Shown: piece by piece, positions 3,599 through 55,720 of the stretch
Position numbering within the stretch: position 1 is the stretch's first letter
Layout: every line of letters begins with the position of its first letter
Source: an uncultured Bacilli bacterium
GTDB lineage: Bacteria > Bacillota_I > Bacilli_A > RF39 > UBA660
DNA: 64,000 bases
Direction of reading: 5' to 3'
Assembly (NCBI GenBank): GCA_934086395.1
Contig: CAKOIE010000002.1
Location: forward strand, 14,678 to 78,677
Translations under genes and position numbers: made by a program
Notes under the pieces: model-generated
What the model saw: only the letters and a program-made list of their open reading frames with translations
Told to the model about the DNA's origin: nothing
Databases searched by the model: none

Positions 3599-6007
3599 CT
3601 ACTCGCTTCTTAAAGCATCAACTGGATTCTTTTTACTTGCCATCTTAGATGGAATAAGTCCTGCTATAACATTTAATAAAACACTAAGTAAAATCATTAT
3701 AACACCTTGTATTAAAGGTAAACTGAAATTAAGATTAACTTTAACTAATGTTTTTAAAATAATATTAATTGGTATAGACAACAATACTGATATACCTACA
3801 CCTAACACTCCAGCAATAACACCTTCAATAATAGTTTCAGATTTAAATACTCTTGAAATATCTTTTCCACTAGCACCAAGTGCTTTTAAAATTCCAATTT
3901 CTTTTGTTCTTTCAAGTACACTAATATAAGTAATAATTGCAATCATTATACTAGAAACAATTAAACTTACACTAACTACACCAATTAAAACTGCACTTAC
4001 TCCACTTACAATTGATGAAAGTTCAGTAAGAATTATTTTATTTTCATCACTATAAACTATTTTTTTATTTGTATTACCTTTATCTAATTGTTCCTTATTA
4101 TAGTTATCAATATATTCCTTAATTTTATTTTTAGAATCAAAATCTTTCGGAACGATACTAATACCTTCCGGATTATCTATATCTAATGAATTTAATAAAA
4201 GCATATTTCTATCATAAGTAGTATAAACATTATCAAATTTATCTCCACTAAAGACATCTATATCTTTATTCTTAATTTGTTCTTTAACTATTTCACTATC
4301 ATTTATATGCTGAACAAATTTTTTAAATAATTCTTCACTATAATATATATAAGAATCAGCATATTCACTATTATCATCTTCACTTGTATATTTAAGAATA
4401 CCAACAATATTTAAGTCAATTCCTTTCGTAATTAAATCATTCATATATTCCTTATCATTAAGTTTATTTATGTATTTTTCACCAACTTTTTGATATATAT
4501 CAGTATTATAAATTAACTTATATTTTAATTTTAAAAATGTATCATATGTATATGTTGTAGATTCGACTTTTTCATTTTTATTAATTAAATCTAAAACATT
4601 GTCCTTATCTTTAAGATATAAATAATATAGTACTGAATCATTAATTATTCCATCACTAGGAACTAATAATACCATATCATTTTCAGTTTCCGGATAATTT
4701 CCAGCCACTAAAGTATATTTATCATTTTCTTTTAAATAGTCAAAATTAATCTTATTAAATTTAATACCAGAAAAAGAATTTTTTAACCCATCATCTTCAT
4801 TAACAAATTCTATTAAAGGTTCAGTTATTTTAACAAAATCATCTTTATATTTATAATATATTGGAAGTGTATAATCATATTCATAATCTACATTTTTTGC
4901 ATATTCTTTAATTGAATTATTATTTTCAATATACTTTTTGAAAGATTTTAAATCATTTTTAATATATAATCCATCTTTTTTATTAAAACTTGATACAACA
5001 TCATCGTAAGAACAAATATCACTTTCACATTTATTTTTATCTGAATTAGAGTTGCTAAAATAATTTTCCATATCAAATGTGCTTTGTGAAATCGTTATAG
5101 GAAAATCTTCAAGAGTTTCTTTTTCAAATTTATTAATGTAATTTTTTAATCCTGAATTTAAAATTAACACTAAGCATATTCCTAGTATTCCAATAGATCC
5201 AGCAAAACTTGTTAAAAATGTTCTTCCTTTTTTAGTTAACAAATTTTTTAAAGATAAACTAAGTGTTGTTAAATAAGGCATATTTGTCTTATTAAATTTA
5301 ATTTTAGAACCATCTTCACTATTAGTTATTTTATAACTATTACTATCCCCAACAATTTTTCCATCCTTAAGTTCAATTATTCGATCTGAATATTTATTTG
5401 CTATTTCTTTATTATGAGTAACCATAATAATTAATTTATTTTTAGATATTTCTTTTAAAATATCCATAATCTGTACACTAGTATTTGAGTCTAATGCTCC
5501 CGTTGGCTCATCAGCTAAAATTATGTTTGGATTATTAACTATGGCTCTTGCAATAGCTACTCTCTGCATTTGTCCACCCGATAATTGATTAGGCTTTTTA
5601 TATAAATGATCATTTAATCCAACTTTTATTAATGCTTCGGTTGCTTTAATTCTTCGTTCTTTTTTGTTTATTCTTGATAAAGTTAATGCTAGTTCTACAT
5701 TTTCAAGAACACTTAGATGTGATATTAAATTATAATTTTGAAATACAAACCCAATTTTATAATTACGATAACTGTCCCAATTCTTTTTGGTGAAATTTTT
5801 AGTAGATAAATTATCAATAACTAAATCTCCGCTATCATAAACATCTAATCCACCAATTATGTTTAAAAGTGTTGTTTTTCCACTACCACTTGCTCCTAAA
5901 ATAGATACAAATTCATTTTTTCTAAAAGTTATATTTATATCCTTTAAAACTTGTTGCTTTTCTTCACCTATAATATAACTCTTATAAATATTTTTTAACT
6001 GCAACAT
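3599..6007 (-). CDS. ABC transporter, fused ATP-binding domain and FtsX-type permease (MacB-like)
   Basis: N-terminal Walker A GASGSGKTT, ABC signature LSGGQMQR and Walker B IILADEPT. C-terminal FtsX-like transmembrane helices with a long extracytoplasmic domain between them. Confidence 0.8.
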   Translation of the reverse strand: MLQLKNIYKSYIIGEEKQQVLKDINITFRKNEFVSILGASGSGKTTLLNIIGGLDVYDSGDLVIDNLSTKNFTKKNWDSYRNYKIGFVFQNYNLISHLSVLENVELALTLSRINKKERRIKATEALIKVGLNDHLYKKPNQLSGGQMQRVAIARAIVNNPNIILADEPTGALDSNTSVQIMDILKEISKNKLIIMVTHNKEIANKYSDRIIELKDGKIVGDSNSYKITNSEDGSKIKFNKTNMPYLTTLSLSLKNLLTKKGRTFLTSFAGSIGILGICLVLILNSGLKNYINKFEKETLEDFPITISQSTFDMENYFSNSNSDKNKCESDICSYDDVVSSFNKKDGLYIKNDLKSFKKYIENNNSIKEYAKNVDYEYDYTLPIYYKYKDDFVKITEPLIEFVNEDDGLKNSFSGIKFNKINFDYLKENDKYTLVAGNYPETENDMVLLVPSDGIINDSVLYYLYLKDKDNVLDLINKNEKVESTTYTYDTFLKLKYKLIYNTDIYQKVGEKYINKLNDKEYMNDLITKGIDLNIVGILKYTSEDDNSEYADSYIYYSEELFKKFVQHINDSEIVKEQIKNKDIDVFSGDKFDNVYTTYDRNMLLLNSLDIDNPEGISIVPKDFDSKNKIKEYIDNYNKEQLDKGNTNKKIVYSDENKIILTELSSIVSGVSAVLIGVVSVSLIVSSIMIAIITYISVLERTKEIGILKALGASGKDISRVFKSETIIEGVIAGVLGVGISVLLSIPINIILKTLVKVNLNFSLPLIQGVIMILLSVLLNVIAGLIPSKMASKKNPVDALRSE

Positions 6008-6035
6008 TCTAATAACTCCTAATCATTTATTTTAC

Positions 6036-6629
6036 TTACTTATTTTTTAATTCTTTATTATAAAACACACATTGTTTAAACAAATAATAAATAATTACTG
6101 TAAATAAATCAATACAACACAAGATAATAAAAATATACTCATTAACAAATAAAAAACTAAAAAAAGCTAAAAATACCATAATAAAACAACAATTTCTAAT
6201 TATTAATGCATATTTTAATTTTTCCTCGGTAAATAATTCATCTTTAGTTGAAACCTTATTAACTATTTTAAAAACATAAATTAAAATTATTATAAGAATT
6301 GCAAAAATAACAATTAATAAAACTACTGGTTGATAAATGTTTAACATTGAAAATCCATTAAGCTTAATATTATTAACTAAATTCGTTACTTCTGTTGCAT
6401 CAGAATATCCACAAAAATTTCTTAAAAAAGACATAATTGGTTCATTTGCTAAAATCTCATCAATAGATTTTTCTTTAATAAATAAGTAAATTAATGTACC
6501 TAAATTTGCAACATAAATAGTAAAAAACACAACTAAAGCTATTAATAAATAAACAAATCTTTTTATAGATTTCATATCTTTAATTATATTTTCTTCTTCA
6601 TCTTTTTTAATATTATTTTTCTTTACCAC
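6036..6629 (-). CDS. Membrane protein, hypothetical
   Basis: Multiple hydrophobic helices. Directly upstream of the ABC gene on the same strand. Confidence 0.45.
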   Translation of the reverse strand: MVKKNNIKKDEEENIIKDMKSIKRFVYLLIALVVFFTIYVANLGTLIYLFIKEKSIDEILANEPIMSFLRNFCGYSDATEVTNLVNNIKLNGFSMLNIYQPVVLLIVIFAILIIILIYVFKIVNKVSTKDELFTEEKLKYALIIRNCCFIMVFLAFFSFLFVNEYIFIILCCIDLFTVIIYYLFKQCVFYNKELKNK

Positions 6630-6675
6630 ACTAACTCAAACTCCTATCTACTATAATAATAACATAAACCAAAAA

Positions 6676-8070
6676 TTATATCTTATTATTTCTTATCTCA
6701 TATCTAATATTTTCATCATATCCATGATATAAATTATAATACCTACCAAAATATTCTCCATCTATTTTATCAAACCATACATAATTAGGATACTTATAAC
6801 TATTAACCTCAATTATCTTTTTATCTAAATTATTTTTAATAAAACTATCCCTTTCAACTTCACACCCATAATTTTCAATATTTACATACAAAAGTAAAAC
6901 ATATAAAATAAAACAAAAAATCTTAAACCAAACATAATCCTTAATAATAATCTTATTTATATCTAACACCCTAAACATTAAAATAATAATTAACACATAA
7001 GGTAAAAAGAATAATCTTTCTCCTAAAGGATGTATAAATACTAAAGGTAAAATAACACATACAATTAACAATACTAATTCCCATACATCTTTATTAAACT
7101 TAACTAATTTATATATTAAATAAAAATATAATATCAAATATAAAACATCTACTATAAATATAAAGTAAATATTAAACTTAAATAATCCACATAATATAGT
7201 CAAACATGTTAACATATTAAAAATTATCAACAATAAAGTATTTTTTAATTTACCTTTAAAATATAAATAAGAAAAAACAAACAATATAAATCCATTCAAA
7301 ATAACATTATCATTAATTAAGTTCACAAATATTCCATTAAATAAATTATTACTAATAATTCTAACTAATGAAGATTTATCTTGAGGAATATATCTATCAT
7401 TTAAAGTAGTACCAAATATTAAATTTAGATAACTTGGATGAATAAACATCATAATTGCACCAATAATACTACCAATTAACATAATAATTAGATTAATATT
7501 AACTCTTTTATTTTTAATAAAATATATTAAATTATAAATAAATAAAATCATTAAAGTACCAACAGTTATATTTTCAACGACTAATGAATTAAGTATTGTA
7601 ACAACAAATATTCCAATTTTTTCATACCATTTACTATTAGTTTTTTTATAATACTTCTTAATTAAATAGTATACACTTATAAAAAGTAATGTACTAATCA
7701 TATAATTACTAAATCCACTACCCCAAATTATAACTTGTGTAAATCTATTAATAGGCATTAAAAGTATTAATATTAAGAATATCCACAATGATATTTTTTC
7801 ATTTTTATCAATTAAATATAAAAGTAAAGTACTAACAAATGAAATTACTAATGCTTTAATTAAATGATTATAAGATATAAAAATTGCAACAAAATTCCCT
7901 AACCATCTTCCATTTAAAAATAAATCATTATATATATCTTTAATTGTACTAAAACTTAAACTTTTACTACCCCAATAAAAATCATCACATGAAAAAGGAA
8001 AGAAAAAAGAAAGTAACATTATCAAACAAAACAATATTATATATTTTTTATACTTCTTTAAATAATTCAT
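6676..8070 (-). CDS. Polytopic integral membrane protein (possibly a glycosyltransferase-like or YfhO-like membrane protein)
   Basis: 464 aa with more than 10 predicted transmembrane segments. Family is uncertain. Confidence 0.45.
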   Translation of the reverse strand: MNYLKKYKKYIILFCLIMLLSFFFPFSCDDFYWGSKSLSFSTIKDIYNDLFLNGRWLGNFVAIFISYNHLIKALVISFVSTLLLYLIDKNEKISLWIFLILILLMPINRFTQVIIWGSGFSNYMISTLLFISVYYLIKKYYKKTNSKWYEKIGIFVVTILNSLVVENITVGTLMILFIYNLIYFIKNKRVNINLIIMLIGSIIGAIMMFIHPSYLNLIFGTTLNDRYIPQDKSSLVRIISNNLFNGIFVNLINDNVILNGFILFVFSYLYFKGKLKNTLLLIIFNMLTCLTILCGLFKFNIYFIFIVDVLYLILYFYLIYKLVKFNKDVWELVLLIVCVILPLVFIHPLGERLFFLPYVLIIILMFRVLDINKIIIKDYVWFKIFCFILYVLLLYVNIENYGCEVERDSFIKNNLDKKIIEVNSYKYPNYVWFDKIDGEYFGRYYNLYHGYDENIRYEIRNNKI

Positions 8071-19449: not shown

Positions 19450-19560
19450 ATATAACAATATTTGTTCCAACTTAATTGGTGCTACAATGTCGCACCTTTT
19501 TCAATTAACAAATAAATTGTTTATCATTTCAAAATTATAACATTTTTTAATTTGATTAAT

Positions 19561-19902
19561 CTAATAATTTATTTCATTGTATTTATAAAGAGATAATAAC
19601 AATCTACAGTTTGACCATGACAATTGTGTCCCCACTGGGGACACTTTTTCATCACTAAATACTTTATAAAACTGTTTCATTCTAAATAATGTACGCCGAT
19701 TATATTTTTTACCTACTTCTACAACTAATCTTTTAGAATATTCATCAATTATATTATCGCCATATTTACCACCAGCTTCGGTTAATAATCTACCTATTTC
19801 AAAATAAGTATTCACAGTATTTCTTTCTTTTGAATAATCTTTTACTTTAGAGTATATTTCATTATCTATTATTTTATTTTTTATTTCTTCATAATAATTC
19901 AT
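19561..19902 (-). pseudogene. Truncated DUF1016 (YhcG-like) gene, N-terminal 113-aa fragment
   Basis: The first 68 codons are nearly identical in DNA to the two full-length copies. The ORF stops prematurely before the PD-(D/E)xK domain. Confidence 0.65.
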
Positions 19903-19917
19903 TTATCTTCCTTCTTT

Positions 19918-20808
19918 CTATACTAATTCATAATTTCTAGCTATAATTCTTTTATCACTACAATATTCAATAATATATTCATTATTTTCTCTACATACAA
20001 TTATTCCAATTGTTTTATCTTGATTTGATTTCTTTAAATTATTATCTATATAATTCATATATATTTCTATTTGTCCAATATGTTCTTTCTTTAGTTTTGC
20101 AACTTTAAGTTCTACTACAACATAACAATTAAACTCTATGTTATATAGTAATAAATCAATATAATTATATCTATCACCTAATTTTATAGGATACTCATTA
20201 CTAATAAAGCTAAAGCCTGATCCTAGTTCTTGCATAAAATTTTTAATATCTTCTAATATAATTTGTTGCAATACTTTTTCGGATATTTCAATATATTTAT
20301 TTGTATTTTTAATCAATATTGGATTCTTTACTAAATCAGGTAATAATGGTTCTTCATTTGCAATAAGTTTAGTCTTAGCGCTTTCATTTAATCTTTCGTA
20401 TTCTTTGAATTTAATTTTTTCGTCTAATTGTCTTTTTGTTAAATTATATTTTATACATTCATTAGCGTAATAGTTAATTTCGTCATAATTTCTTAATGGA
20501 ATTAAAAGTAAACAATTGCTCCAAGATAATTGTCGCACCAATGGAGCGACTTTTTCATTACTAAAAATTTTAAATAATTGTTTCATTTTGTATAAGGTTT
20601 TAGTATTATACTTTTTGCCTACTTCTACAACTAATCTTTTAGAATATTCATCAATAATATTATCGCCATATTTACCACCTGCTTCATTTAATAATCTTCC
20701 TATTTCAAAATAAGTATTTACAGTATTTCTTTCTTTTGAATAATCTTTTACTTTAGAGTATATTTCATTATCTATTATTTTATTTTTTATTTCTTCATAA
20801 TAATTCAT
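19918..20808 (-). CDS. DUF1016/YhcG-like PD-(D/E)xK nuclease family protein (copy B)
   Basis: N-terminal DUF1016_N-like region with a QLSWSN motif. C-terminal PD-(D/E)xK-like 'YIDLLLYN...YVVVELK'. The C-terminal 150 aa are identical to copy A. Confidence 0.7.
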   Translation of the reverse strand: MNYYEEIKNKIIDNEIYSKVKDYSKERNTVNTYFEIGRLLNEAGGKYGDNIIDEYSKRLVVEVGKKYNTKTLYKMKQLFKIFSNEKVAPLVRQLSWSNCLLLIPLRNYDEINYYANECIKYNLTKRQLDEKIKFKEYERLNESAKTKLIANEEPLLPDLVKNPILIKNTNKYIEISEKVLQQIILEDIKNFMQELGSGFSFISNEYPIKLGDRYNYIDLLLYNIEFNCYVVVELKVAKLKKEHIGQIEIYMNYIDNNLKKSNQDKTIGIIVCRENNEYIIEYCSDKRIIARNYELV

Positions 20809-20823
20809 TTATCTTCCTTCTTT

Positions 20824-21714
20824 CTATACTAATTCATAATTTCTAGCTATAATTCTTTTATCACTACAATATTCAATAATATATTCATTATTTTCTCTAC
20901 ATACAATTATTCCAATTGTTTTATCTTGATTTGATTTCTTTAAATTATTATCTATATAATTCATATATATTTCTATTTGTCCAATATGTTCTTTCTTTAG
21001 TTTTGCAACTTTAAGTTCTACTACAACATAACAATTAAACTCTATGTTATATAGTAATAAATCAATATAATTATATCTATCACCTAATTTTATAGGATAC
21101 TCATTACTAATAAAGCTAAAGCCTGATCCTAGTTCTTGCATAAAATTTTTAATATCTTCTAATATAATTTGTTGCAATACTTTTTCGGATATTTCAATAT
21201 ATTTATTTGTATTTTTAATCAATATTGGATTCTTTACTAAATCAGGTAATAATGGCTTTACATTTGCAATAAGTTTAGTCTTAGCGCTTTCACTAAGTCT
21301 TTCATATTCTTGAGATTTAATCTTATTTCGCAATTCTCTTATACTAATATTAAAGTTATTACAAATTCTTATGTAGTATATTATTGCATTGATATTTTTT
21401 AGCTTTAATAATTCTGAATAATGACTCCAAGTCAATTGTGTCGACAGTGTCGACACTTTTTCATCACTAAATACTTTATAAAATTGCTTCATCCTAAATA
21501 AGGTACGGCGATTATATTTTTTGCCTACTTCTACAACTAATCTTTTAGAATATTCGTCAATAATATTATCGCCATATTTACCACCAGCTTCGGTTAATAG
21601 TCTACCTATTTCAAAATAAGTATTTACGGTATTTCTTTCTTTTGAATAATCTTTTACTTTAGAGTATATTTCGTTATCGATTATTTTATTTTTTATTTCT
21701 TCATAATAATTCAT
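20824..21714 (-). CDS. DUF1016/YhcG-like PD-(D/E)xK nuclease family protein (copy A)
   Basis: Same architecture as copy B. The N- and C-termini are identical and the middle ~75 aa diverge. Confidence 0.7.
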   Translation of the reverse strand: MNYYEEIKNKIIDNEIYSKVKDYSKERNTVNTYFEIGRLLTEAGGKYGDNIIDEYSKRLVVEVGKKYNRRTLFRMKQFYKVFSDEKVSTLSTQLTWSHYSELLKLKNINAIIYYIRICNNFNISIRELRNKIKSQEYERLSESAKTKLIANVKPLLPDLVKNPILIKNTNKYIEISEKVLQQIILEDIKNFMQELGSGFSFISNEYPIKLGDRYNYIDLLLYNIEFNCYVVVELKVAKLKKEHIGQIEIYMNYIDNNLKKSNQDKTIGIIVCRENNEYIIEYCSDKRIIARNYELV

Positions 21715-21754: not shown

Positions 21755-22477
21755 TTATTTGTAGCTAATACACGTAACATTATCATCTAACATAAGTAAA
21801 TTCATTGGTTTATTTGAATAATTTTCTATTAATTTAACAACATTAAGTAATATTTCATCATCACCTGCTAATTGATATGAATAACTTATACTTAAAGATG
21901 TTAATAACTTTAATGCTTTAGTTAACCAACTATTAACATTATTTAATTTATTTAAAGATACATAAGTAGTTAAAGGAGTATTTTTAATAATCTCTCCTGT
22001 TTTATAATCACTATAAACATACTTTTCAATTAAAAAATTATTATTATATTCATAAGTTTGTAAAACAACTGAAGCATATCCTATTTTTTTATTATTCAAA
22101 GTTAAATTATTTTTTAATTCAAAACGAAAAATATAAGAATTACTACTAATTAATAATTTATTATTATAATTATTACTAATATTAGAAGAATCTATAAATA
22201 TATCAATAACTGGTTTATTTAATTCATATCTCATGTATTTAAAACTATCATTAGTAATAACATAAGAATTAATAATATTATTAAGTTCAATATCAAATAC
22301 TTTAGATATAATAGTTTTAAAATATATATTATATTTATTAAATAAATATTTAAATACTTCTTCATTAATTATTGGTAAATGAAAATCATTATTACATTTT
22401 AAATAATTATTAGTATTAATTAACTTAAGATTATAATTTAATTTATCTAGATCATATATTGTAATTAATTTTGCCAT
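21755..22477 (-). CDS. Hypothetical protein
   Basis: 240-aa Asn/Tyr-rich ORF. RBS AAAGGAATAAAATTT before the ATG. Confidence 0.4.
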   Translation of the reverse strand: MAKLITIYDLDKLNYNLKLINTNNYLKCNNDFHLPIINEEVFKYLFNKYNIYFKTIISKVFDIELNNIINSYVITNDSFKYMRYELNKPVIDIFIDSSNISNNYNNKLLISSNSYIFRFELKNNLTLNNKKIGYASVVLQTYEYNNNFLIEKYVYSDYKTGEIIKNTPLTTYVSLNKLNNVNSWLTKALKLLTSLSISYSYQLAGDDEILLNVVKLIENYSNKPMNLLMLDDNVTCISYK

Positions 22478-22489
22478 AAATTTTATTCC

Positions 22490-22518
22490 TTTCTAAAAAG
22501 AGGAAATATTTTCCTCTT
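22490..22518 (-). terminator. Terminator-like hairpin (GAAGAGGAAA..TTTCCTCTT then TTTT) at the end of the 3' UTR of the 22778..24295 gene
   Basis: 9-bp inverted repeat with a T-run on the minus strand. Confidence 0.45.
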
Positions 22519-22777
22519 CTATATATATATTTAGTATAAAGTTTATTAATTTACTTGTTTTTTTTGTAAATAAAATAGAATTTAATTAAAATAAAAAAGA
22601 CATTGAACCAATCAATATCCATTTTAACTTATAATATCTAAATAAAATAACTTCATATATTGTTAAAAATAACACTGTAAGAAATAGAAAATGTTTATAA
22701 AGTTTTCCTAAGAACGGGCTCCTATAATCGCGTGGCAGGTCCCTACCTGCCTGCTCTCCCTCGCGCTTCGCTATATA

Positions 22778-24295
22778 TCACTCAAGTGTATATGCATTTT
22801 CTATACTTTCGCCTGTTCCTCCAGCTATCACGACATCAGATTTTAAGAAAAGGGCCGGACGCACACCATACGTGCTGAAAGCAACGCGGTCGCTGACATC
22901 CCCGCCCGAACCGACACGGAACACATAATCCGCATCGCCAGAACTAGGGGACAAAGTCCATTGATATGCACTGTTAAATAACCAGTTATTTACTTTACTA
23001 TCAGCATCATCACAGTCGTATAAACTATTTCTGCATGCAGCTCCGGTTGATGCATATCCATAATCACTTGGATAAATTAAGGCGATTTTTCCATCCCATG
23101 CATTTTTTCTTGCTATTCCGTCTGATGGATTACTGATATGTAATGTTCCTCTTTCGGCATTGTACATATTCAAAGCAGAAACTGAATATGTATTATAACC
23201 ACCTAGATTCCATCTTACTTTTGCTACTTTATCTAATGAACTACTTTTTATATTTTTTCTATAATCGTATGATCCATTTTTTTCATTATTTTGTCCATTA
23301 TACCATAAGGTTGTACCACTCGTTTTATTTGATAAATACCCTTCAGCAATATCACTTCGACAATATGCTGTGCTTCCACTACCATCACAGTTTAATTCAT
23401 ACATTAAATCTGCTTGACTCCATTCATTTACTCCCCATCCATTATTTATACTTGATTCAGAAGTATCCCATGAATAATTTCCTAGTAAATCATTTCTTAC
23501 TATTTTTACAAGTGATTCCTTCTTTTCTTTACCATTCTCATCTATTGTTGTTATATTATTAAATACTCCTATTATTCTCCATATTTCATCACCATTAAAT
23601 TTTAGATAGTTCCTTGGTGATGCTCCTACATATCTTATATTTTTTTCTGGTGTATCATCTTTTTCTAATCCATTATCTGTTGCTGCTTTATTGTATGTAT
23701 TATTTAAATGTAAAAATAAGGGGGTTAGTGATGATGTATCGTTTGTATTTTCTATTGTTATTTTAGCGTTCAAAACTAATTGCCCATTTTTATTTTGAAT
23801 TTTATCTGATTTAGGAAAATATAAATTTAAACGATACTTAGTAGTTGTATTTGTTTTAGGTGATATTGTTAATTCTTTTAAAATTGCTTTACCAGCTGCT
23901 ATAGTTGGAAACATTGTCTTTTCTTGAACTACTGTACTATAATTTGTTCCACTATAAATATCATAATATAGAACACCGTCATTTTCAGTATCAGTAAATG
24001 TATTTAAATCTATTATTGTCTTCAAATACAATTTATAACTATTATTAGAAGTGTTTTTTACTGTTATAGAAAAATCCTTATAACCAATTGGTGTATCACC
24101 AGGTAATGCATTTTCAATAGTTATAGTACTCGTCGATTCAAACTTTGCAGATAACTGAGCACCTCCAATAATCATAGTTGATGAATCTTCTGACTTTATA
24201 TTTAAATCAAAATATGCATAAGTTATACCAAAAAATAATCCAATAGTTAATAAGAATACTAATAAAGTTATTATAATAATTTTGTTATTTTTCAT
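22778..24295 (-). CDS. Secreted protein with a TasA/camelysin-like SipW-cognate signal peptide and a conserved C-terminal domain (paralog 1)
   Basis: N-terminal 'KIIIITLLVFLLTIGLFFGITYAYFD' resembles TasA/CalY signal regions (GGTxAxF). C-terminal '..WTLSPSSG..VRPALFLKSDVVIAGGTGESIENAYTLE' is shared with paralog 2. Lies 35 nt downstream of the GH31 gene. Confidence 0.6.
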   Translation of the reverse strand: MKNNKIIIITLLVFLLTIGLFFGITYAYFDLNIKSEDSSTMIIGGAQLSAKFESTSTITIENALPGDTPIGYKDFSITVKNTSNNSYKLYLKTIIDLNTFTDTENDGVLYYDIYSGTNYSTVVQEKTMFPTIAAGKAILKELTISPKTNTTTKYRLNLYFPKSDKIQNKNGQLVLNAKITIENTNDTSSLTPLFLHLNNTYNKAATDNGLEKDDTPEKNIRYVGASPRNYLKFNGDEIWRIIGVFNNITTIDENGKEKKESLVKIVRNDLLGNYSWDTSESSINNGWGVNEWSQADLMYELNCDGSGSTAYCRSDIAEGYLSNKTSGTTLWYNGQNNEKNGSYDYRKNIKSSSLDKVAKVRWNLGGYNTYSVSALNMYNAERGTLHISNPSDGIARKNAWDGKIALIYPSDYGYASTGAACRNSLYDCDDADSKVNNWLFNSAYQWTLSPSSGDADYVFRVGSGGDVSDRVAFSTYGVRPALFLKSDVVIAGGTGESIENAYTLE

Positions 24296-30554: not shown

Positions 30555-30860
30555 TTTTAACTCCTCCTTTAATTAAAAAAAGTTCATAAATATAGAGACG
30601 ACTAATCGCGGTACCACTCTACTTTATGAACTTTAATTCATACACTCTTTCTCTTAACGTGAGATTGCCGTACTTTCCTTATCCGAAAGTCACATCAGAA
30701 GTGATTTACATTATATTTTATTATATCTTAATTTCACCATATATAAGACTCTCTAAATAAACCATATAATGTCGTCTTCATCAATTGCTTTATGTCTTAA
30801 ATTATAGAATTTATTTACATGTTTGTCAATTAGTTAGTTTGACTTATGCATGTTTTATAA
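30555..30860 (-). promoter_or_regulatory. T-box riboswitch leader of ileS
   Basis: Conserved T-box sequence AGAGUGGUACCGCG on the minus strand. It is followed by terminator AGTTCATAAA...TTTATGAACT then TTTTTTT, directly upstream of the RBS GGAGGAG. Confidence 0.85.
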
Positions 30861-40779: not shown

Positions 40780-40890
40780 AATAAATCTCTCCTCTAATTT
40801 ATAGTGGAAAGATTTTGAGATGTTTATTCATACTTAATTATTTATTTTATTGGTCTCATGGTTTTAGCCTCTAATCGTGCATTAAAATTT

Positions 40891-41222
40891 TAACGAATAT
40901 TCATATATTTTTGTTGACTATTCTATAATCTATTTGATATATTAATTTTCAGGAACATCTAATATGTTTGAGTGATTACTCCATATCTTTATTTTTTAAA
41001 GAAAGGAGTGATTTTATGAGAAAAATTGATTATCTAATCCTTTTTCTTATAGTAATTATTTTTATATTATTATTTATTATTATTAAACTGATATAAAAAA
41101 ATCACCATAAACTTTGGGGGTTTTGGTGAAACTTTGATAAAGGGTAATCACCTAGCTATCCAAATTAGGTGTTCCTTTTTTATTTTATGTAAGTCTTACT
41201 TACGTATTCATTATAGCAAAAA
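40891..41222 (+). repeat. Tandem direct repeat unit 1 (~332 bp) containing promoter, small ORF and terminator
   Basis: About 95% identical to 41256..41590. Begins TTAACGAATATTCAT. Confidence 0.8.
41016..41096 (+). CDS. 26-aa hydrophobic peptide MRKIDYLILFLIVIIFILLFIIIKLI (type I toxin-like small membrane peptide), copy 1
   Basis: Strong RBS AAAGGAGTG 7 nt before the ATG, with promoter-like TTGACT upstream. Terminator CACCTAGCTATCCAAATTAGGTG then T7 follows. Not in the ORF track because it is short. Confidence 0.55.
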   Translation: MRKIDYLILFLIVIIFILLFIIIKLI

Positions 41223-41255
41223 ATATTTTTATCTTCAATAGTGTTACCATAATAA

Positions 41256-41590
41256 TTTAACGAATATTCATATATTTTTGTTGACTATTCTATAATCTAT
41301 TTGATATATTAATTTTCAGGAACATCTAATATGTTTGGGTGATTACTCCATATCTTTATTTTTTAAAGAAAGGAGTGATTTTATGAGAAAGATAGATTAT
41401 TTAATCCTTTTTCTTATAGTAATTATTTTTATATTGTTATTTATTATTATTAAATTAATATAAAAAAATCACCATAAACTTTGGGGGTTTTGGTGAAAAT
41501 CACAAATTAGGATAATCACCTAACTAACCAAAATTAGGTGTTCCTTTTTATTTTATGTAAGTCTTGCTTACGTATTCATTATAGCAAAAA
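41256..41590 (+). repeat. Tandem direct repeat unit 2 (~335 bp)
   Basis: Second copy of the module. Followed by TTGACGAATTTT, a truncated start of a third unit. Confidence 0.8.
41383..41463 (+). CDS. 26-aa hydrophobic peptide, copy 2 (identical peptide, 6 synonymous nucleotide differences)
   Basis: Same RBS and terminator. All differences from copy 1 inside the ORF are synonymous. Confidence 0.55.
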   Translation: MRKIDYLILFLIVIIFILLFIIIKLI

Positions 41591-52382: not shown

Positions 52383-53978
52383 TCATTCCAAAGTATATGC
52401 ATTTTCTATGCTTTCTCCTGTTCCTCCAGCTAACACGACATCAGATTTCAAGAAAAGGGCTGGACGAACGGAATATTTATAATGAGTATAACTATTACTA
52501 ACACTTCCATCAGTAGTAATTTCAAAACATGCATAGCCGGAACTTGGAGATAATGTCCAAGATCTATTTTTATCATATAGCCAATTATATGCTGTATTAT
52601 CGCAATTATATAAATTATTTCTACACTCAATTTTTGTTGATGCATAGCCATAATCACTAGGATAAATTAAAGCAATTTTTCCATCCCAATAATTAGTTCT
52701 TGTTATTCCGTCTGTGGGATTACTAATATGCAAAATATCTCTTTCATAATTATATGCTTTTATAGTTGGAATATCATCGTACTCATAAATTCCACCAAAG
52801 TTCCATCTTACTGTTGCAATTTTACCTATTGAACTATTTTTTATATTTTTAACATATTTATAGATTGCTGTTTTTTCGTTATTTAATCCATTATACCATT
52901 TAGTTTCACCAGTAATTTTGTTTGATAAATATCCATCAGCAATAGCATCTCGACAATATTTTGGATTACCACTCCCATCACAATTAAGTTCATACATTAA
53001 ATCAGCTTGACTCCACTCATTAATTCCCTTTCCCTCATTAACACTTGATTCAGAGCTATCCCATGAATAATTTCCTAGTGGATCATCTCTTACTATTTTT
53101 ACAAGTGATTCCTTCTTTTCTTTACCTTTCTCATCTATTGAAGTTATATTATTAAATACTCCAACTATTCTCCATATTTCATCATTAAATTTTAGATAGT
53201 TCTTTGGTGATGCTCCTACATACCTTAAGTTTTTATCTGGTGTAACATCTTCTTCTAATCCATTTTTAGTTTTATCTAATTTTGTTAAATAAGTTGAAAT
53301 ATATTTTGGTTCATAATTTACTACTACTTTACCATTAAATGTTTTTCCTTTTTCTGAGTCTTGGTTTTCATTATTATCAGGAAATTGTATTATTAAATTG
53401 AATTTTATAGTTTGTTCAGTCTTTAAAGCAGGAAATACTCCGGTTACCATTTCTGTATATTTACTTCCGTTTTTAAATGTTCCATGAGTATATCCTGTAT
53501 ATGTATCATTTCCTGGTACTGTTTGATTTTTATAATCATCTTCTTTTTTACCTGGTTCAGGTGTTATTACATAATTTGCTGTTACTTGTGAGTTTGTCTC
53601 TCCTTCAACTTCTTTTATATAATAATGTATCATTCCATCACTAAAGGTTGAGGTATATTGTACTCCTACTTTATATGGCATTGGAAGTCCATCACCAGTC
53701 TTCATTCCTACAGTCGTATTTGATCCAGTTAATGTAAATGTTTTAGCAACTATAATGTCATTACTTGGCACAATATTTTTACTTGTTAATATATCACTTG
53801 TTCCATCAGTATAACTAATAGTCATCTTTCCTCCTATTACTTCTACTATTGATGTACTTCCATTATTATTTGTTGATGTAAAAAAAGCATATGTTATTCC
53901 TGAAAACATCATTAATAATATTAATAATGTTCCAATCATTACATATACTTTTGCTCTTTCATTCTTAACCTTATTCAT
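52383..53978 (-). CDS. Secreted protein with a TasA/camelysin-like SipW-cognate signal peptide and a conserved C-terminal domain (paralog 2)
   Basis: N-terminus 'VYVMIGTLLILLMMFSGITYAFFTS'. The C-terminal half is about 80% identical to paralog 1. The N-terminal 90 aa are nearly identical to paralog 3. Confidence 0.6.
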   Translation of the reverse strand: MNKVKNERAKVYVMIGTLLILLMMFSGITYAFFTSTNNNGSTSIVEVIGGKMTISYTDGTSDILTSKNIVPSNDIIVAKTFTLTGSNTTVGMKTGDGLPMPYKVGVQYTSTFSDGMIHYYIKEVEGETNSQVTANYVITPEPGKKEDDYKNQTVPGNDTYTGYTHGTFKNGSKYTEMVTGVFPALKTEQTIKFNLIIQFPDNNENQDSEKGKTFNGKVVVNYEPKYISTYLTKLDKTKNGLEEDVTPDKNLRYVGASPKNYLKFNDEIWRIVGVFNNITSIDEKGKEKKESLVKIVRDDPLGNYSWDSSESSVNEGKGINEWSQADLMYELNCDGSGNPKYCRDAIADGYLSNKITGETKWYNGLNNEKTAIYKYVKNIKNSSIGKIATVRWNFGGIYEYDDIPTIKAYNYERDILHISNPTDGITRTNYWDGKIALIYPSDYGYASTKIECRNNLYNCDNTAYNWLYDKNRSWTLSPSSGYACFEITTDGSVSNSYTHYKYSVRPALFLKSDVVLAGGTGESIENAYTLE

Positions 53979-54145: not shown

Positions 54146-55720
54146 TTATAAACTTAATTTATAAGGATTTGTCTTCTCTCCTGTTCCAGTTATAAATGAT
54201 ATATTGGACTTTAAATAAATTGAAGGGAAAACATAGTATAAATAATATGAATGATTTTCAATAATTGCACCACCAACCGAAACAAAAAATATATAGCTAG
54301 AAATACCATAATAAGGAGATAAAGTCCAATAATTAGCTGCATTAAATAGCCAATTATTAGTTTTACATACACCTTTAGAATAATTCCACTTATCAGTCAC
54401 ATTATCATATATTATACCACCTCTTAAATTATCTCTACATTCAATACCTGTTGAAGCAAAGCCATAATCACTTGAATAAATTAATCCAACCTTACCTACC
54501 CATTCAGTAGGACGACTATTTTGATAGGTTATTGTTCCTCTTTCTTTACTATATTGATCTAATAATGGCAACCCGTAAGGCCTACTATAAGGATTACTAT
54601 ATCCATTTCCTCCAATATTCCACACACTTTCACTTATCATATTTTGATAATTACTTTTTATAACTTTAGTATAATCAAATACTCCATTTTGGCGAAGTAC
54701 GGGTTTTCCTGATTCCAAATATGAATTATACCAATTAGTCTTATTTGAAGTTATGGTTGTATCTAAATAATCACCATTTAATTCTTTCATCAAGTCTGCT
54801 TCTGTCCAATTATTAAATCCATAATTATCATTTCCAGTTGCATCCCATGAATATGCTCCTAATGATTCATCTCTAACTAATTTAATCTTTCTTTCTATCT
54901 TTCCTGTTGAATCTTTTACGTTAAATATACCACCTATTCTCCATAGTTCTCCTGTGTTAGCAAACTCAACATAATTATTTGGATTAGCTCCTGTATATCT
55001 TAAGTTTACATCACTTGTATTATCTATAAATAATCCACTTGTTGATACTTCATTTGTTTTTTCTTCTTTATCATAAAGAGCCATTAATGTATCTGTTGCA
55101 GACTCTTTATGATTTACAACTATCTTTCCTGTTAGACTTTTTCCTTTTTCACTATCTTGGTTTAATCCATTATCAGGAAATTGTAGTTTTAAATTAAATG
55201 TAATTGTTTGATTTGTTGTATTTGTTTTAAACTCTTCTGTTGCTAGTTCTAAATATCTATTACCTTTTTTAAGTGTTCCAGTAGTATATCCTGTTTCTGA
55301 GGTGTTACCTGGTATTGTTTGATTTGCTGTTCCAACTAGATTACTTGATACATTATCATTTGCACTCGTTCTTTTTATATAATAATGAATCATTCCATCA
55401 CTAAAGCCTGATATATAATCTAGTCCCACTTCATATGGCATTTCTAAACCACTTGTCGTATTTGTTCCTGTTAATGTAAATGTTTTATTTATTATAATGT
55501 CATTACTTGGCATAATATTTTTACTAGTTAATATATCACTAGTTCCATCAGTATAAGTAATGATCATCTTACCTCCTGTTACTTCTACTATTGATGTACT
55601 TCCATTATTATTTGTTGATGTAAAAAAAGCATATGTTATTCCTGAAAACATCATTAATAATATTAATAATGTTCCAATCATTACATATACTTTTACTCTT
55701 TCATTCTTAACTTTATTCAT
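54146..55720 (-). CDS. Secreted protein with a TasA/camelysin-like SipW-cognate signal peptide and a conserved C-terminal domain (paralog 3)
   Basis: N-terminus identical in type to paralog 2. More diverged C-terminus '..WTLSPYYG...GTGEKTNPYKLSL'. Confidence 0.6.
   Translation of the reverse strand: MNKVKNERVKVYVMIGTLLILLMMFSGITYAFFTSTNNNGSTSIVEVTGGKMIITYTDGTSDILTSKNIMPSNDIIINKTFTLTGTNTTSGLEMPYEVGLDYISGFSDGMIHYYIKRTSANDNVSSNLVGTANQTIPGNTSETGYTTGTLKKGNRYLELATEEFKTNTTNQTITFNLKLQFPDNGLNQDSEKGKSLTGKIVVNHKESATDTLMALYDKEEKTNEVSTSGLFIDNTSDVNLRYTGANPNNYVEFANTGELWRIGGIFNVKDSTGKIERKIKLVRDESLGAYSWDATGNDNYGFNNWTEADLMKELNGDYLDTTITSNKTNWYNSYLESGKPVLRQNGVFDYTKVIKSNYQNMISESVWNIGGNGYSNPYSRPYGLPLLDQYSKERGTITYQNSRPTEWVGKVGLIYSSDYGFASTGIECRDNLRGGIIYDNVTDKWNYSKGVCKTNNWLFNAANYWTLSPYYGISSYIFFVSVGGAIIENHSYYLYYVFPSIYLKSNISFITGTGEKTNPYKLSL

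Follow-up and report, generated by a model that had tools for sequence, protein, structure and literature searches.

The DNA analysed here (the window, 64,000 nucleotides of contig CAKOIE010000002.1 from an uncultured Bacilli bacterium, assembly GCA_934086395.1) carries three members of one gene family, and the first of them (paralog 1, the target gene of Table 1) contains, close to its 3′ end, a GC-rich patch that is followed just past the stop codon by a second GC-rich stretch with a stem-loop. We describe both features and argue that the coding patch is very probably the variable region (VR) of a target gene of a diversity-generating retroelement (DGR); more tentative readings of the post-stop stretch are then weighed.

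In a window of 24.5% GC overall, the sliding-window GC reached 61% at 22850-22949 and 47-49% at 22700-22799, and 60-nt windows with at least 50% GC were confined to 22695-22798 (47% overall), 22805-22971 (53%), two tRNA genes and two short coding stretches. The VR displays 60.6% GC and 9.6% A, compared to 28% GC and 42% A in the remainder of the gene, and its GC content at third codon positions (GC3) is 59%, with A absent from all of these positions, against a GC3 of 13% elsewhere. Only 8 of the 127,792 windows of 104 nt on both strands were as A-poor and GC-rich as the VR, and all of them overlap the VR site. Identical DNA was found on several independent metagenome contigs, and the patch is therefore no assembly artefact. 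A sequence-only reading of this stretch had described a coding segment of about 60% GC written in codons otherwise rare in the genome, and the codon counts of the window agree with it (CGC 0.3, CCG 0.9 and TCG 1.2 per 1000). It had also described the homologous segment of paralog 2 as AT-rich and 2 codons shorter, which holds (36% GC, 6 nt shorter), and the AT-rich stretch between the two patches as conserved, for which we measured ~87 nt including the stop (22778-22864) with 89% identity to paralog 2. The second GC-rich stretch past the stop codon, reported with a perfect 7-bp hairpin and no T-run, is present as described, and alignment showed that this stretch is missing from paralogs 2 and 3.

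The peptide encoded by the VR is L S P S S G D A D Y V F R V G S G G D V S D R V A F S T Y G V R P A. The 3′ coding tail that follows it is 89-93% identical to that of paralog 2 and nearly invariant over 9 lineages. The G+C-rich run at the 3′ end of the VR, seen in the TR/VR (template repeat/variable region) alignments of the window and of the loci L028, L075, L097 and L104, is a candidate initiation of mutagenic homing (IMH) sequence, and constant GC-rich sequence flanking the mutagenised part has been described for DGRs (PMC5758913).

Table 1. Coordinates of the features discussed. Positions refer to the window unless another locus is named, and the mosaic segments are parts of the window gene with their identity to the cassette-adjacent target of L104.
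Feature	Position	Strand	Description
Target gene (paralog 1)	22778..24295	(-)	505 aa open reading frame (ORF)
Probable DGR variable region (VR)	22851..22954	(-)	104 nt, codons 448-481 of 505; bounds set against a real TR
IMH-like G+C-rich run GGTGTGCGTCCGGCCC	22852..22867	(-)	3′ end of the VR; TR-VR homology stops one base on, at 22851
AT-rich 3′ coding tail LFLKSDVVIAGGTGESIENAYTLE	22781..22850	(-)	Outside the TR; DNA conserved among paralogs and species
Post-stop GC-rich element	22725..22773	(-)	~49 nt, 63% GC; main stem-loop and mini-hairpin motif
GCGAAGC mini-hairpin motif	22765..22771	(-)	Inside the post-stop element
Stem-loop GGCAGGT-AGGG-ACCTGCC (sense; plus strand GGCAGGT-CCCT-ACCTGCC)	22734..22751	(-)	7-bp stem, 4-nt loop
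Paralog 2	52383..53978	(-)	IMH-like end and tail kept; AT-rich 'ex-VR', 6 nt shorter
Paralog 3	54146..55720	(-)	More divergent family member without VR signature
MSL-like ORF	L028 12320-12697; L075 12331-12690; L097 709-1077; L099 5335-5679		114-126 aa; weak MutS domain I match, GGFY...VGFP motif
Mosaic, 5′ part	23682-24295		62% identity
Mosaic	23325-23681		76% identity
Mosaic, upstream of VR	22955-23324		95% identity
Mosaic, VR	22851-22954		79% identity
Mosaic, 3′ coding tail	22781-22850		100% identity
Mosaic, stop codon and element	22722-22780		91.5% identity
Mosaic, beyond element	22701-22721		38%, no similarity

The differences between the VR and a TR are adenine-specific. A TR inferred from nine related VRs (with A placed wherever the VRs vary) was 96% identical over 104 nt to a real TR on two contigs, L097 and L098, where it lies upstream of MSL-avd-RT and beside rimP-nusA-infB; contigs bearing a reverse transcriptase (RT) had been collected as homologues of the RT of L028. 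Compared to the L097 TR, which holds 31 A in its 104 nt, the window VR shows 23 mismatches, 21 of which fall at TR adenines (hypergeometric p=1.7e-12). Of the adenines in this template, 68% are altered (13 to G, 3 to C and 5 to T). The TR of L104-L109, which adjoins the RT P0322, is closer still, with 20/104 mismatches, 19 of them at TR adenines. This P0322-adjacent TR is identical on 6 contigs from 6 samples, and two of these contigs (ERZ27287431 and ERZ27287185) have accession numbers near those of the window-matching contigs. The cognate-type TR sequence is TTGTCCCCTAATTCTGGCAATGCGAATAATGTGTTCAATGTCAATTCGGGCGGGAATGTCAACAACAACAATGCTAACAACACTAATGGTGTGCGTCCGGCCCT. Paralog 2 gave a different picture, with 36 mismatches to the TR, 26 of them at non-A positions, plus 6 gap columns, and with an ordinary terminator-like hairpin downstream; it is not a current DGR target.

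More than 2,700 metagenomic homologues of paralog 1 were found, all unnamed, with up to 9 family loci in one metagenome-assembled genome (MAG). They share the C-terminal pattern WTLSPx-SGxAxxVFxVxSGGxVxxxxAxxxxGVRP, in which fixed residues alternate with variable positions taking Y, S, N, D, G, F, R, H, L, I, C, T, A or V, and among 68 homologues, 17 codons within 451-476 have a column entropy above 3 bits, compared to a mean of ~1 bit elsewhere in the protein. Such hypervariability, which is limited to codons 451-476 and draws on residues typical of NNY codons, is the hallmark of a DGR VR templated by AAY codons. The exact VR scaffold pattern had 0 matches in the genome and viral contig collections and recovered 2 further VRs in metagenome contigs, while two TR-like patterns had 0 matches in the viral contig collection. 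Note that the deviations at scaffold positions among the 9 lineages did not separate live from decaying VRs.

A scan of GTDB species representatives yielded 79 loci, all in MAGs of uncultured gut Bacilli or 'Tenericutes', and most of the family genes in these loci carry a GC-rich patch at the same 3′ position. At 10 loci, the patch is followed after 200-1400 nt by an imperfect copy, and the mismatches fall nearly all at adenines of the downstream copy, as in L028 (14/14), L065 (18/18), L061 (21/22) and L062 (21/22). In L028 and L075, a bAvd-like gene and an RVT_1 reverse transcriptase gene come after this copy, and both loci are canonical DGR cassettes. On these and other gut-metagenome contigs, the cassette order is target-smallORF-TR-MSL-Avd-RT: in L028, L075, L097 and L099 (and likewise in the gene table of L104), TR-MSL-avd is immediately followed by an RVT_1 ORF of 350-361 aa, bAvd (PF22296) was detected in every cassette examined with E-values of 1e-6 to 1e-8, all under the curated cut-off, and a further small ORF of 79-101 aa stands between target and TR. 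The accessory gene between TR and avd resembles MutS domain I, and its conserved product of 114-126 aa is probably the 'MSL' accessory protein of Wu et al. 2018 (PMC5758913). In addition, VRs were matched by a TR on a different contig of the same MAG, with 21/23 mismatches at A in L056 and 16/18 in L055. This clade therefore has remote targets, like those previously reported from other cellular DGRs (PMC5758913). The cassettes themselves also offered some side observations. In L099 (3414-4640), the cassette-adjacent target is pseudopilin-like, with a prepilin-type N-terminal methylation motif (PF07963) fused to DUF6273. In the RT cluster P0208, many members are truncated (118-242 aa compared to 350-354), the RT of L024 (8371-9500) contains an in-frame stop, and most RT-bearing contigs are just 1-8 kb long; the DGR cassettes of this clade often seem inactivated, and they seem to break up assemblies.

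We infer that the established DGR mechanism applies here. A chromosomal cassette of this order, located elsewhere and outside the 64-kb window, would transcribe a TR with AAY variable codons, the RT would copy this TR into cDNA with misincorporation at adenines, and the cDNA would replace the homologous stretch at the 3′ end of the target genes. The non-A scaffold of the TR has ~64% G+C, with A never at third codon positions, and adenine mutagenesis would strip two thirds of the TR adenines, mostly to G, leaving an A-depleted island of rare codons. In the cassettes, the GC content is 17% for the RT, 20% for avd, 19.5% for MSL and 45% for the TR, and the VRs reach 50-61%. With cassette genes at 17-20% GC, it is the TR/VR pair itself that is GC-rich, and no foreign donor is indicated. 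Altogether, we consider, with a probability of about 90%, that the GC-rich coding patch is the VR of a DGR target gene. The DGR mechanism is well known, and this gene is a new example of a DGR target in uncultured low-GC gut Bacilli.

The protein encoded by paralog 1 suits such a role. Its N-terminus appears to consist of a hydrophobic helix (a signal or anchor) followed by a beta-sandwich domain, and this arrangement is consistent with a surface ligand-binding protein. The Pfam matches are weak (DUF6273 and the N-terminus of Peptidase_M73), with a DUF6273 score of 17.6 bits under the curated cut-off of 23.5. AlphaFold2 modelled the full protein with a predicted local distance difference test (pLDDT) score of 82.7 and residues 205-505 alone with 90.1. 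The C-terminal domain was modelled separately, the Foldseek matches of the full-length protein being mostly to the N-terminal beta-sandwich, and it retrieved many phage 'DUF6273 domain-containing' proteins (E 1e-9 to 1e-5). Its best match among solved structures was the N-terminal C-type-lectin-like domain (hereafter CTLD) of the Thomasclavelia ramosa immunoglobulin A (IgA) peptidase (PDB 9qa6, E=4e-9, 321 columns), an enlarged C-type-lectin-like domain according to its authors (PMC12237041), while classical CTLDs were matched directly only weakly (E 1-3). However, the identity to the T. ramosa domain is 16%, no DGR is known for that peptidase, and the window protein has no peptidase domain. 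DUF6273 domains in gut phages are known C-type-lectin-like DGR targets (PMC10743442). Our C-terminal domain is thus assigned to the DUF6273/C-type-lectin-like type with the VR inside it, and in the model the VR island encodes a predicted surface beta-hairpin of this ligand-binding domain. The gut-phage targets (the tentaclins, PMC10743442, and those of Faecalibacterium prophages, PMC11792537) share the fold and the position of the VR on a surface beta-hairpin, but they are phage genes, whereas the window gene is a chromosomal host gene beside housekeeping genes.

Likeness to known DGR systems extends to their architecture. As in the DGR of Bordetella phage BPP-1 (mtd/TR/avd/brt), the VR stands at the 3′ end of a ligand-binding gene, differs from the TR specifically at adenines and has a GC-rich IMH-like end, and Avd and RT are present; in contrast to BPP-1, the system described here is chromosomal, its order is target-TR-MSL-avd-RT, and neither TR nor RT lies beside the window target. 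Parallels are also found among cellular DGRs, i.e., the Treponema denticola TvpA family, Legionella pneumophila and the 'Lineage 4' of Wu et al. 2018 (PMC5758913), in which one TR serves scattered paralogous targets, Avd is accompanied by a small MutS-like accessory protein, and the targets, either secreted or located at the surface, carry the VR in C-type-lectin-like domains. Unlike these, the present system resides in MAGs of uncultured gut Bacilli or 'Tenericutes' with ~25% GC, and its 500-aa targets combine a beta-sandwich with a DUF6273-like domain and reach up to 9 loci per MAG.

Several observations weigh against the interpretation of the patch as a DGR VR and have to be set beside it. 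No TR or RT was found within the 64-kb window (blastn with word size 7; scan for the YxDD motif), nor in the ~6.5 kb past its left end (L102). The matching cassette is known from other contigs only. The single mismatch to the P0322 TR that does not fall at an adenine is a T-to-G change. Moreover, the window VR is identical on all 11 contigs carrying P0121 (the protein of the window gene) or its two close variants, which differ only outside the VR, at residues 420 and 422, and gives no direct sign of ongoing diversification; VRs are static in most other species-level clusters, although cluster P0004 varies. Since the VR is fixed in the sampled populations, its diversification is rare or has stopped there. 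It should be noted that this invariance bears on present activity and not on the origin of the sequence.

These points lead to the strongest of the alternatives, to which we give somewhat less than even odds, namely that the VR is a fossil, written by a past DGR or converted from a cassette-adjacent paralog, with the cassette now lost or inactive or the gene a poor target. The GC-rich patch would then be a relic kept by selection on the protein. Besides the invariance on 11 contigs from several samples and the lack of TR and RT in the window, the alternative draws on the many truncated RTs of the matching cluster (118-242 aa), on the in-frame stop in the RT of L024 and on the lower stem of the post-stop hairpin, which the window copy has in a weaker form than the cassette-adjacent one. 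It also draws on the mosaic profile obtained by comparing the window gene with the cassette-adjacent target of L104 (Table 1), since outside the VR the last ~600 nt and the element (22722-23324, corresponding to L104 8057-8659) are 92-100% identical while the 5′ part reaches 62%. This profile implies that the 3′ ~600 nt of the paralogs were homogenised by ordinary gene conversion, which thus seems to have acted too and could have carried both the VR allele and the post-stop element into the window gene. Against a fossil, the scaffold of the VR, including the third positions in G or C, nearly matches the TR (1 non-A mismatch) despite a genome GC3 of 13%, which argues for recent templating. In addition, the same lineage holds an intact RT and a variable cassette-adjacent VR: on 5 contigs, 4 different VR alleles were seen in the cassette-adjacent target while neither the TR nor the RT changed, and that DGR is therefore active. 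The window VR was either written at the locus or copied in, and the data fit both; the window gene is a remote, non-adjacent target, or else a frozen one or a copy distributed when the last ~600 nt underwent gene conversion between paralogs.

The post-stop element requires a separate evaluation. Its stem-loop site is unique in the window (0 expected in shuffles), and an nhmmer search over 1.47 Mb retrieved 8 distinct instances of the element, each a few bases past the stop codon of a VR-bearing family gene. They occur at cassette-adjacent targets (L028, L097/L098 and L104), at targets with no TR in the flank covered (the window, L013, L019 and L011) and in L032, for which ~470 nt of downstream sequence were covered. 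L011 is the syntenic ortholog of the window locus and has the element, which is therefore ancestral at this locus. The sequence G(G/A)TAGGGACC is kept in all instances and the TAGGGA loop region is invariant, while the stem varies; 88% of its cells are paired (in 6 sequences only), one compensatory change from A-T to G-C was seen, and the outer helices differ by subtype. More broadly, a GC-rich post-stop segment was found in 21/46 VR-like family genes compared to 0/12 non-VR paralogs (p=0.002), and in other clades the corresponding place is taken by unrelated GC-rich hairpins, of which several have GNRA-type loops. The sequence-only reading had proposed a structured RNA element in the 3′ untranslated region, and its conserved stem-loop stands, with one compensatory pair, while no Rfam family does: there was no match at the gathering threshold, and over 22300-23300 a permissive search at E up to 10 returned just chance-level matches elsewhere in the interval. 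The pattern of the element had 9 matches in viral contigs, all of them chance matches in high-GC phages. The stem-loop does not fit an intrinsic (rho-independent) terminator, as no T-run follows it and no terminator-like site was found in 22300-22900.

The most likely role of the stem-loop, which we propose tentatively and by analogy, may be that of a cis-acting DGR target-recognition hairpin or cruciform like that of BPP-1. In BPP-1, efficient homing requires a GC-rich stem of 7-10 bp with a 4-nt GRNA loop, located 4-34 bp after the VR, the stem sequence being free and the loop sequence-dependent (Guo 2011). The window element is likewise a downstream GC-rich 7-bp stem with a 4-nt loop, in which the loop is invariant and the stem variable, and its restriction to VR-bearing genes also favours this role. 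Other observations count against this role. The fold z-scores of the whole post-stop region are weak and unremarkable (RNA -0.78, DNA -1.75), the case for the hairpin is consequently a comparative one, and the structural evidence is modest. The loop is AGGG and not GRNA, and the window VR is followed by 23 conserved AT-rich codons that place the hairpin ~103 nt from the VR end, compared to 4-34 bp in phage DGRs. Many VR-bearing genes have no GC-rich post-stop element, including the clean remote target L056; note that a downstream inverted repeat is present in only 34% of DGRs (PMC5758913). Non-A mismatches to the TR of the same genome are fewer in targets with a GC-rich post-stop element (6.5%) than in those without one (24%), which would favour the role, but the comparison is confounded, as 9/10 element-bearing targets are cassette-adjacent and 3/4 element-less ones come from one MAG.

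About equally likely, in our opinion, is that the post-stop stretch acts at the RNA level as an element of the mRNA (a 3′-end stabiliser, a processing site or an atypical terminator) with no role in retrohoming; in the cassette-adjacent copies, it could also delimit the TR transcript. Its location directly past the stop codon with no canonical terminator after it, the unrelated GC-rich and sometimes GNRA-like hairpins of other clades at the same place, and the clean remote targets that have no such element all suit an RNA-level function. However, the element has no U-tract, it never follows the non-VR paralogs, which carry ordinary AT-rich terminators, and its invariant loop with varying stems parallels the sequence-dependent loop of the BPP-1 DNA hairpin. 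Returning to target recognition, a more specific proposal, which we regard as rather unlikely, is that the stem-loop (TAGGGA) and the GCGAAGC motif form a lineage-specific target-recognition module located ~100 nt past the VR, beyond the conserved coding tail, which would license both cassette-adjacent and remote paralogs and whose erosion would freeze the VR. This proposal fits the weakened lower stem of the window copy and a 43-nt deletion in L006.

L006 is the closest ortholog (69% identity), and there (5397-5440) the 43-nt hairpin core is deleted, leaving TATATAGCGTAGCG^AGCCCGTTC. A Transposase_mut/MULE gene (5742-7082) follows, and the VR of L006 has the most non-adenine mismatches to the TR (9/29).

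Two other explanations of the coding patch fare much worse. The sequence-only reading had suggested a recombination or gene-conversion patch from a higher-GC donor, of which the templated replacement is retained and the high-GC donor is not. Horizontal transfer from a donor organism would suit the sharp local increase in GC, the rare codons and the conservation of the AT-rich flanks in the paralog, but we now consider it highly improbable: the source was identified as a TR in AT-rich cassettes with genes at 17-20% GC, the differences from this TR are adenine-specific, and nothing similar was found in viral or genome collections outside the family. Nor is the patch a recent foreign one, since like GC-rich 3′ patches occur in most family members over dozens of related genomes. 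An independent structured non-coding RNA or riboswitch-like element overlapping the coding patch, for which high GC and hairpin potential might speak, can be dismissed as equally improbable, because the patch has no Rfam match at the gathering or a permissive threshold, gives weak fold z-scores and is conserved in codon phase, a fixed scaffold alternating with hypervariable AAY-derived codons.

Other features of the window and its surroundings were noted in passing. Three tandem copies of a YhcG/DUF1016 PDDEXK-nuclease gene occupy 19537-21714 with a 906-nt period, two of them full (296 aa) and one truncated (113 aa); they are 98-100% identical at the ends and diverge in the middle, each unit contains a short palindrome of the type GTGTCGCCAATGGCGACAC, and this array might be a cassette-swapping or phase-variable arrangement. 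At 40883-41590, two tandem direct repeats of ~368 nt (segments 96% and 85% identical) fill an apparently non-coding gap and have no Rfam match. In L102, ~6.5 kb past the left end of the window, genes for a serine recombinase, a Bro-N protein and a helix-turn-helix (HTH) protein flank the Fic/RhuM genes of the window start, which suggests an integrated mobile element at this edge. An ordinary T-box leader (30591-30793) precedes the gene of a 905-aa class I aminoacyl-tRNA synthetase.

Altogether, the compositional island of this gene is explained by a known mechanism, and the region should be annotated neither as foreign DNA nor as an RNA gene. An A-depleted, GC-rich island of ~100 nt at the 3′ end of a surface-protein gene in an AT-rich genome is a signature of DGR targets that can be read from sequence alone, and it remains usable when TR and RT lie on another contig, which is often so because most RT contigs are 1-8 kb long. 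Our analysis documents a large family, as yet unnamed, of C-type-lectin-like surface proteins that DGRs diversify in uncultured gut Bacilli, with targets both adjacent to the cassette and remote from it. The post-stop stem-loop is the sole part of the locus that could add to DGR biology, as an experimentally testable determinant of the target site, and a target-recognition module, if true, would extend the rules for DGR target sites and help to predict live targets among paralogs.

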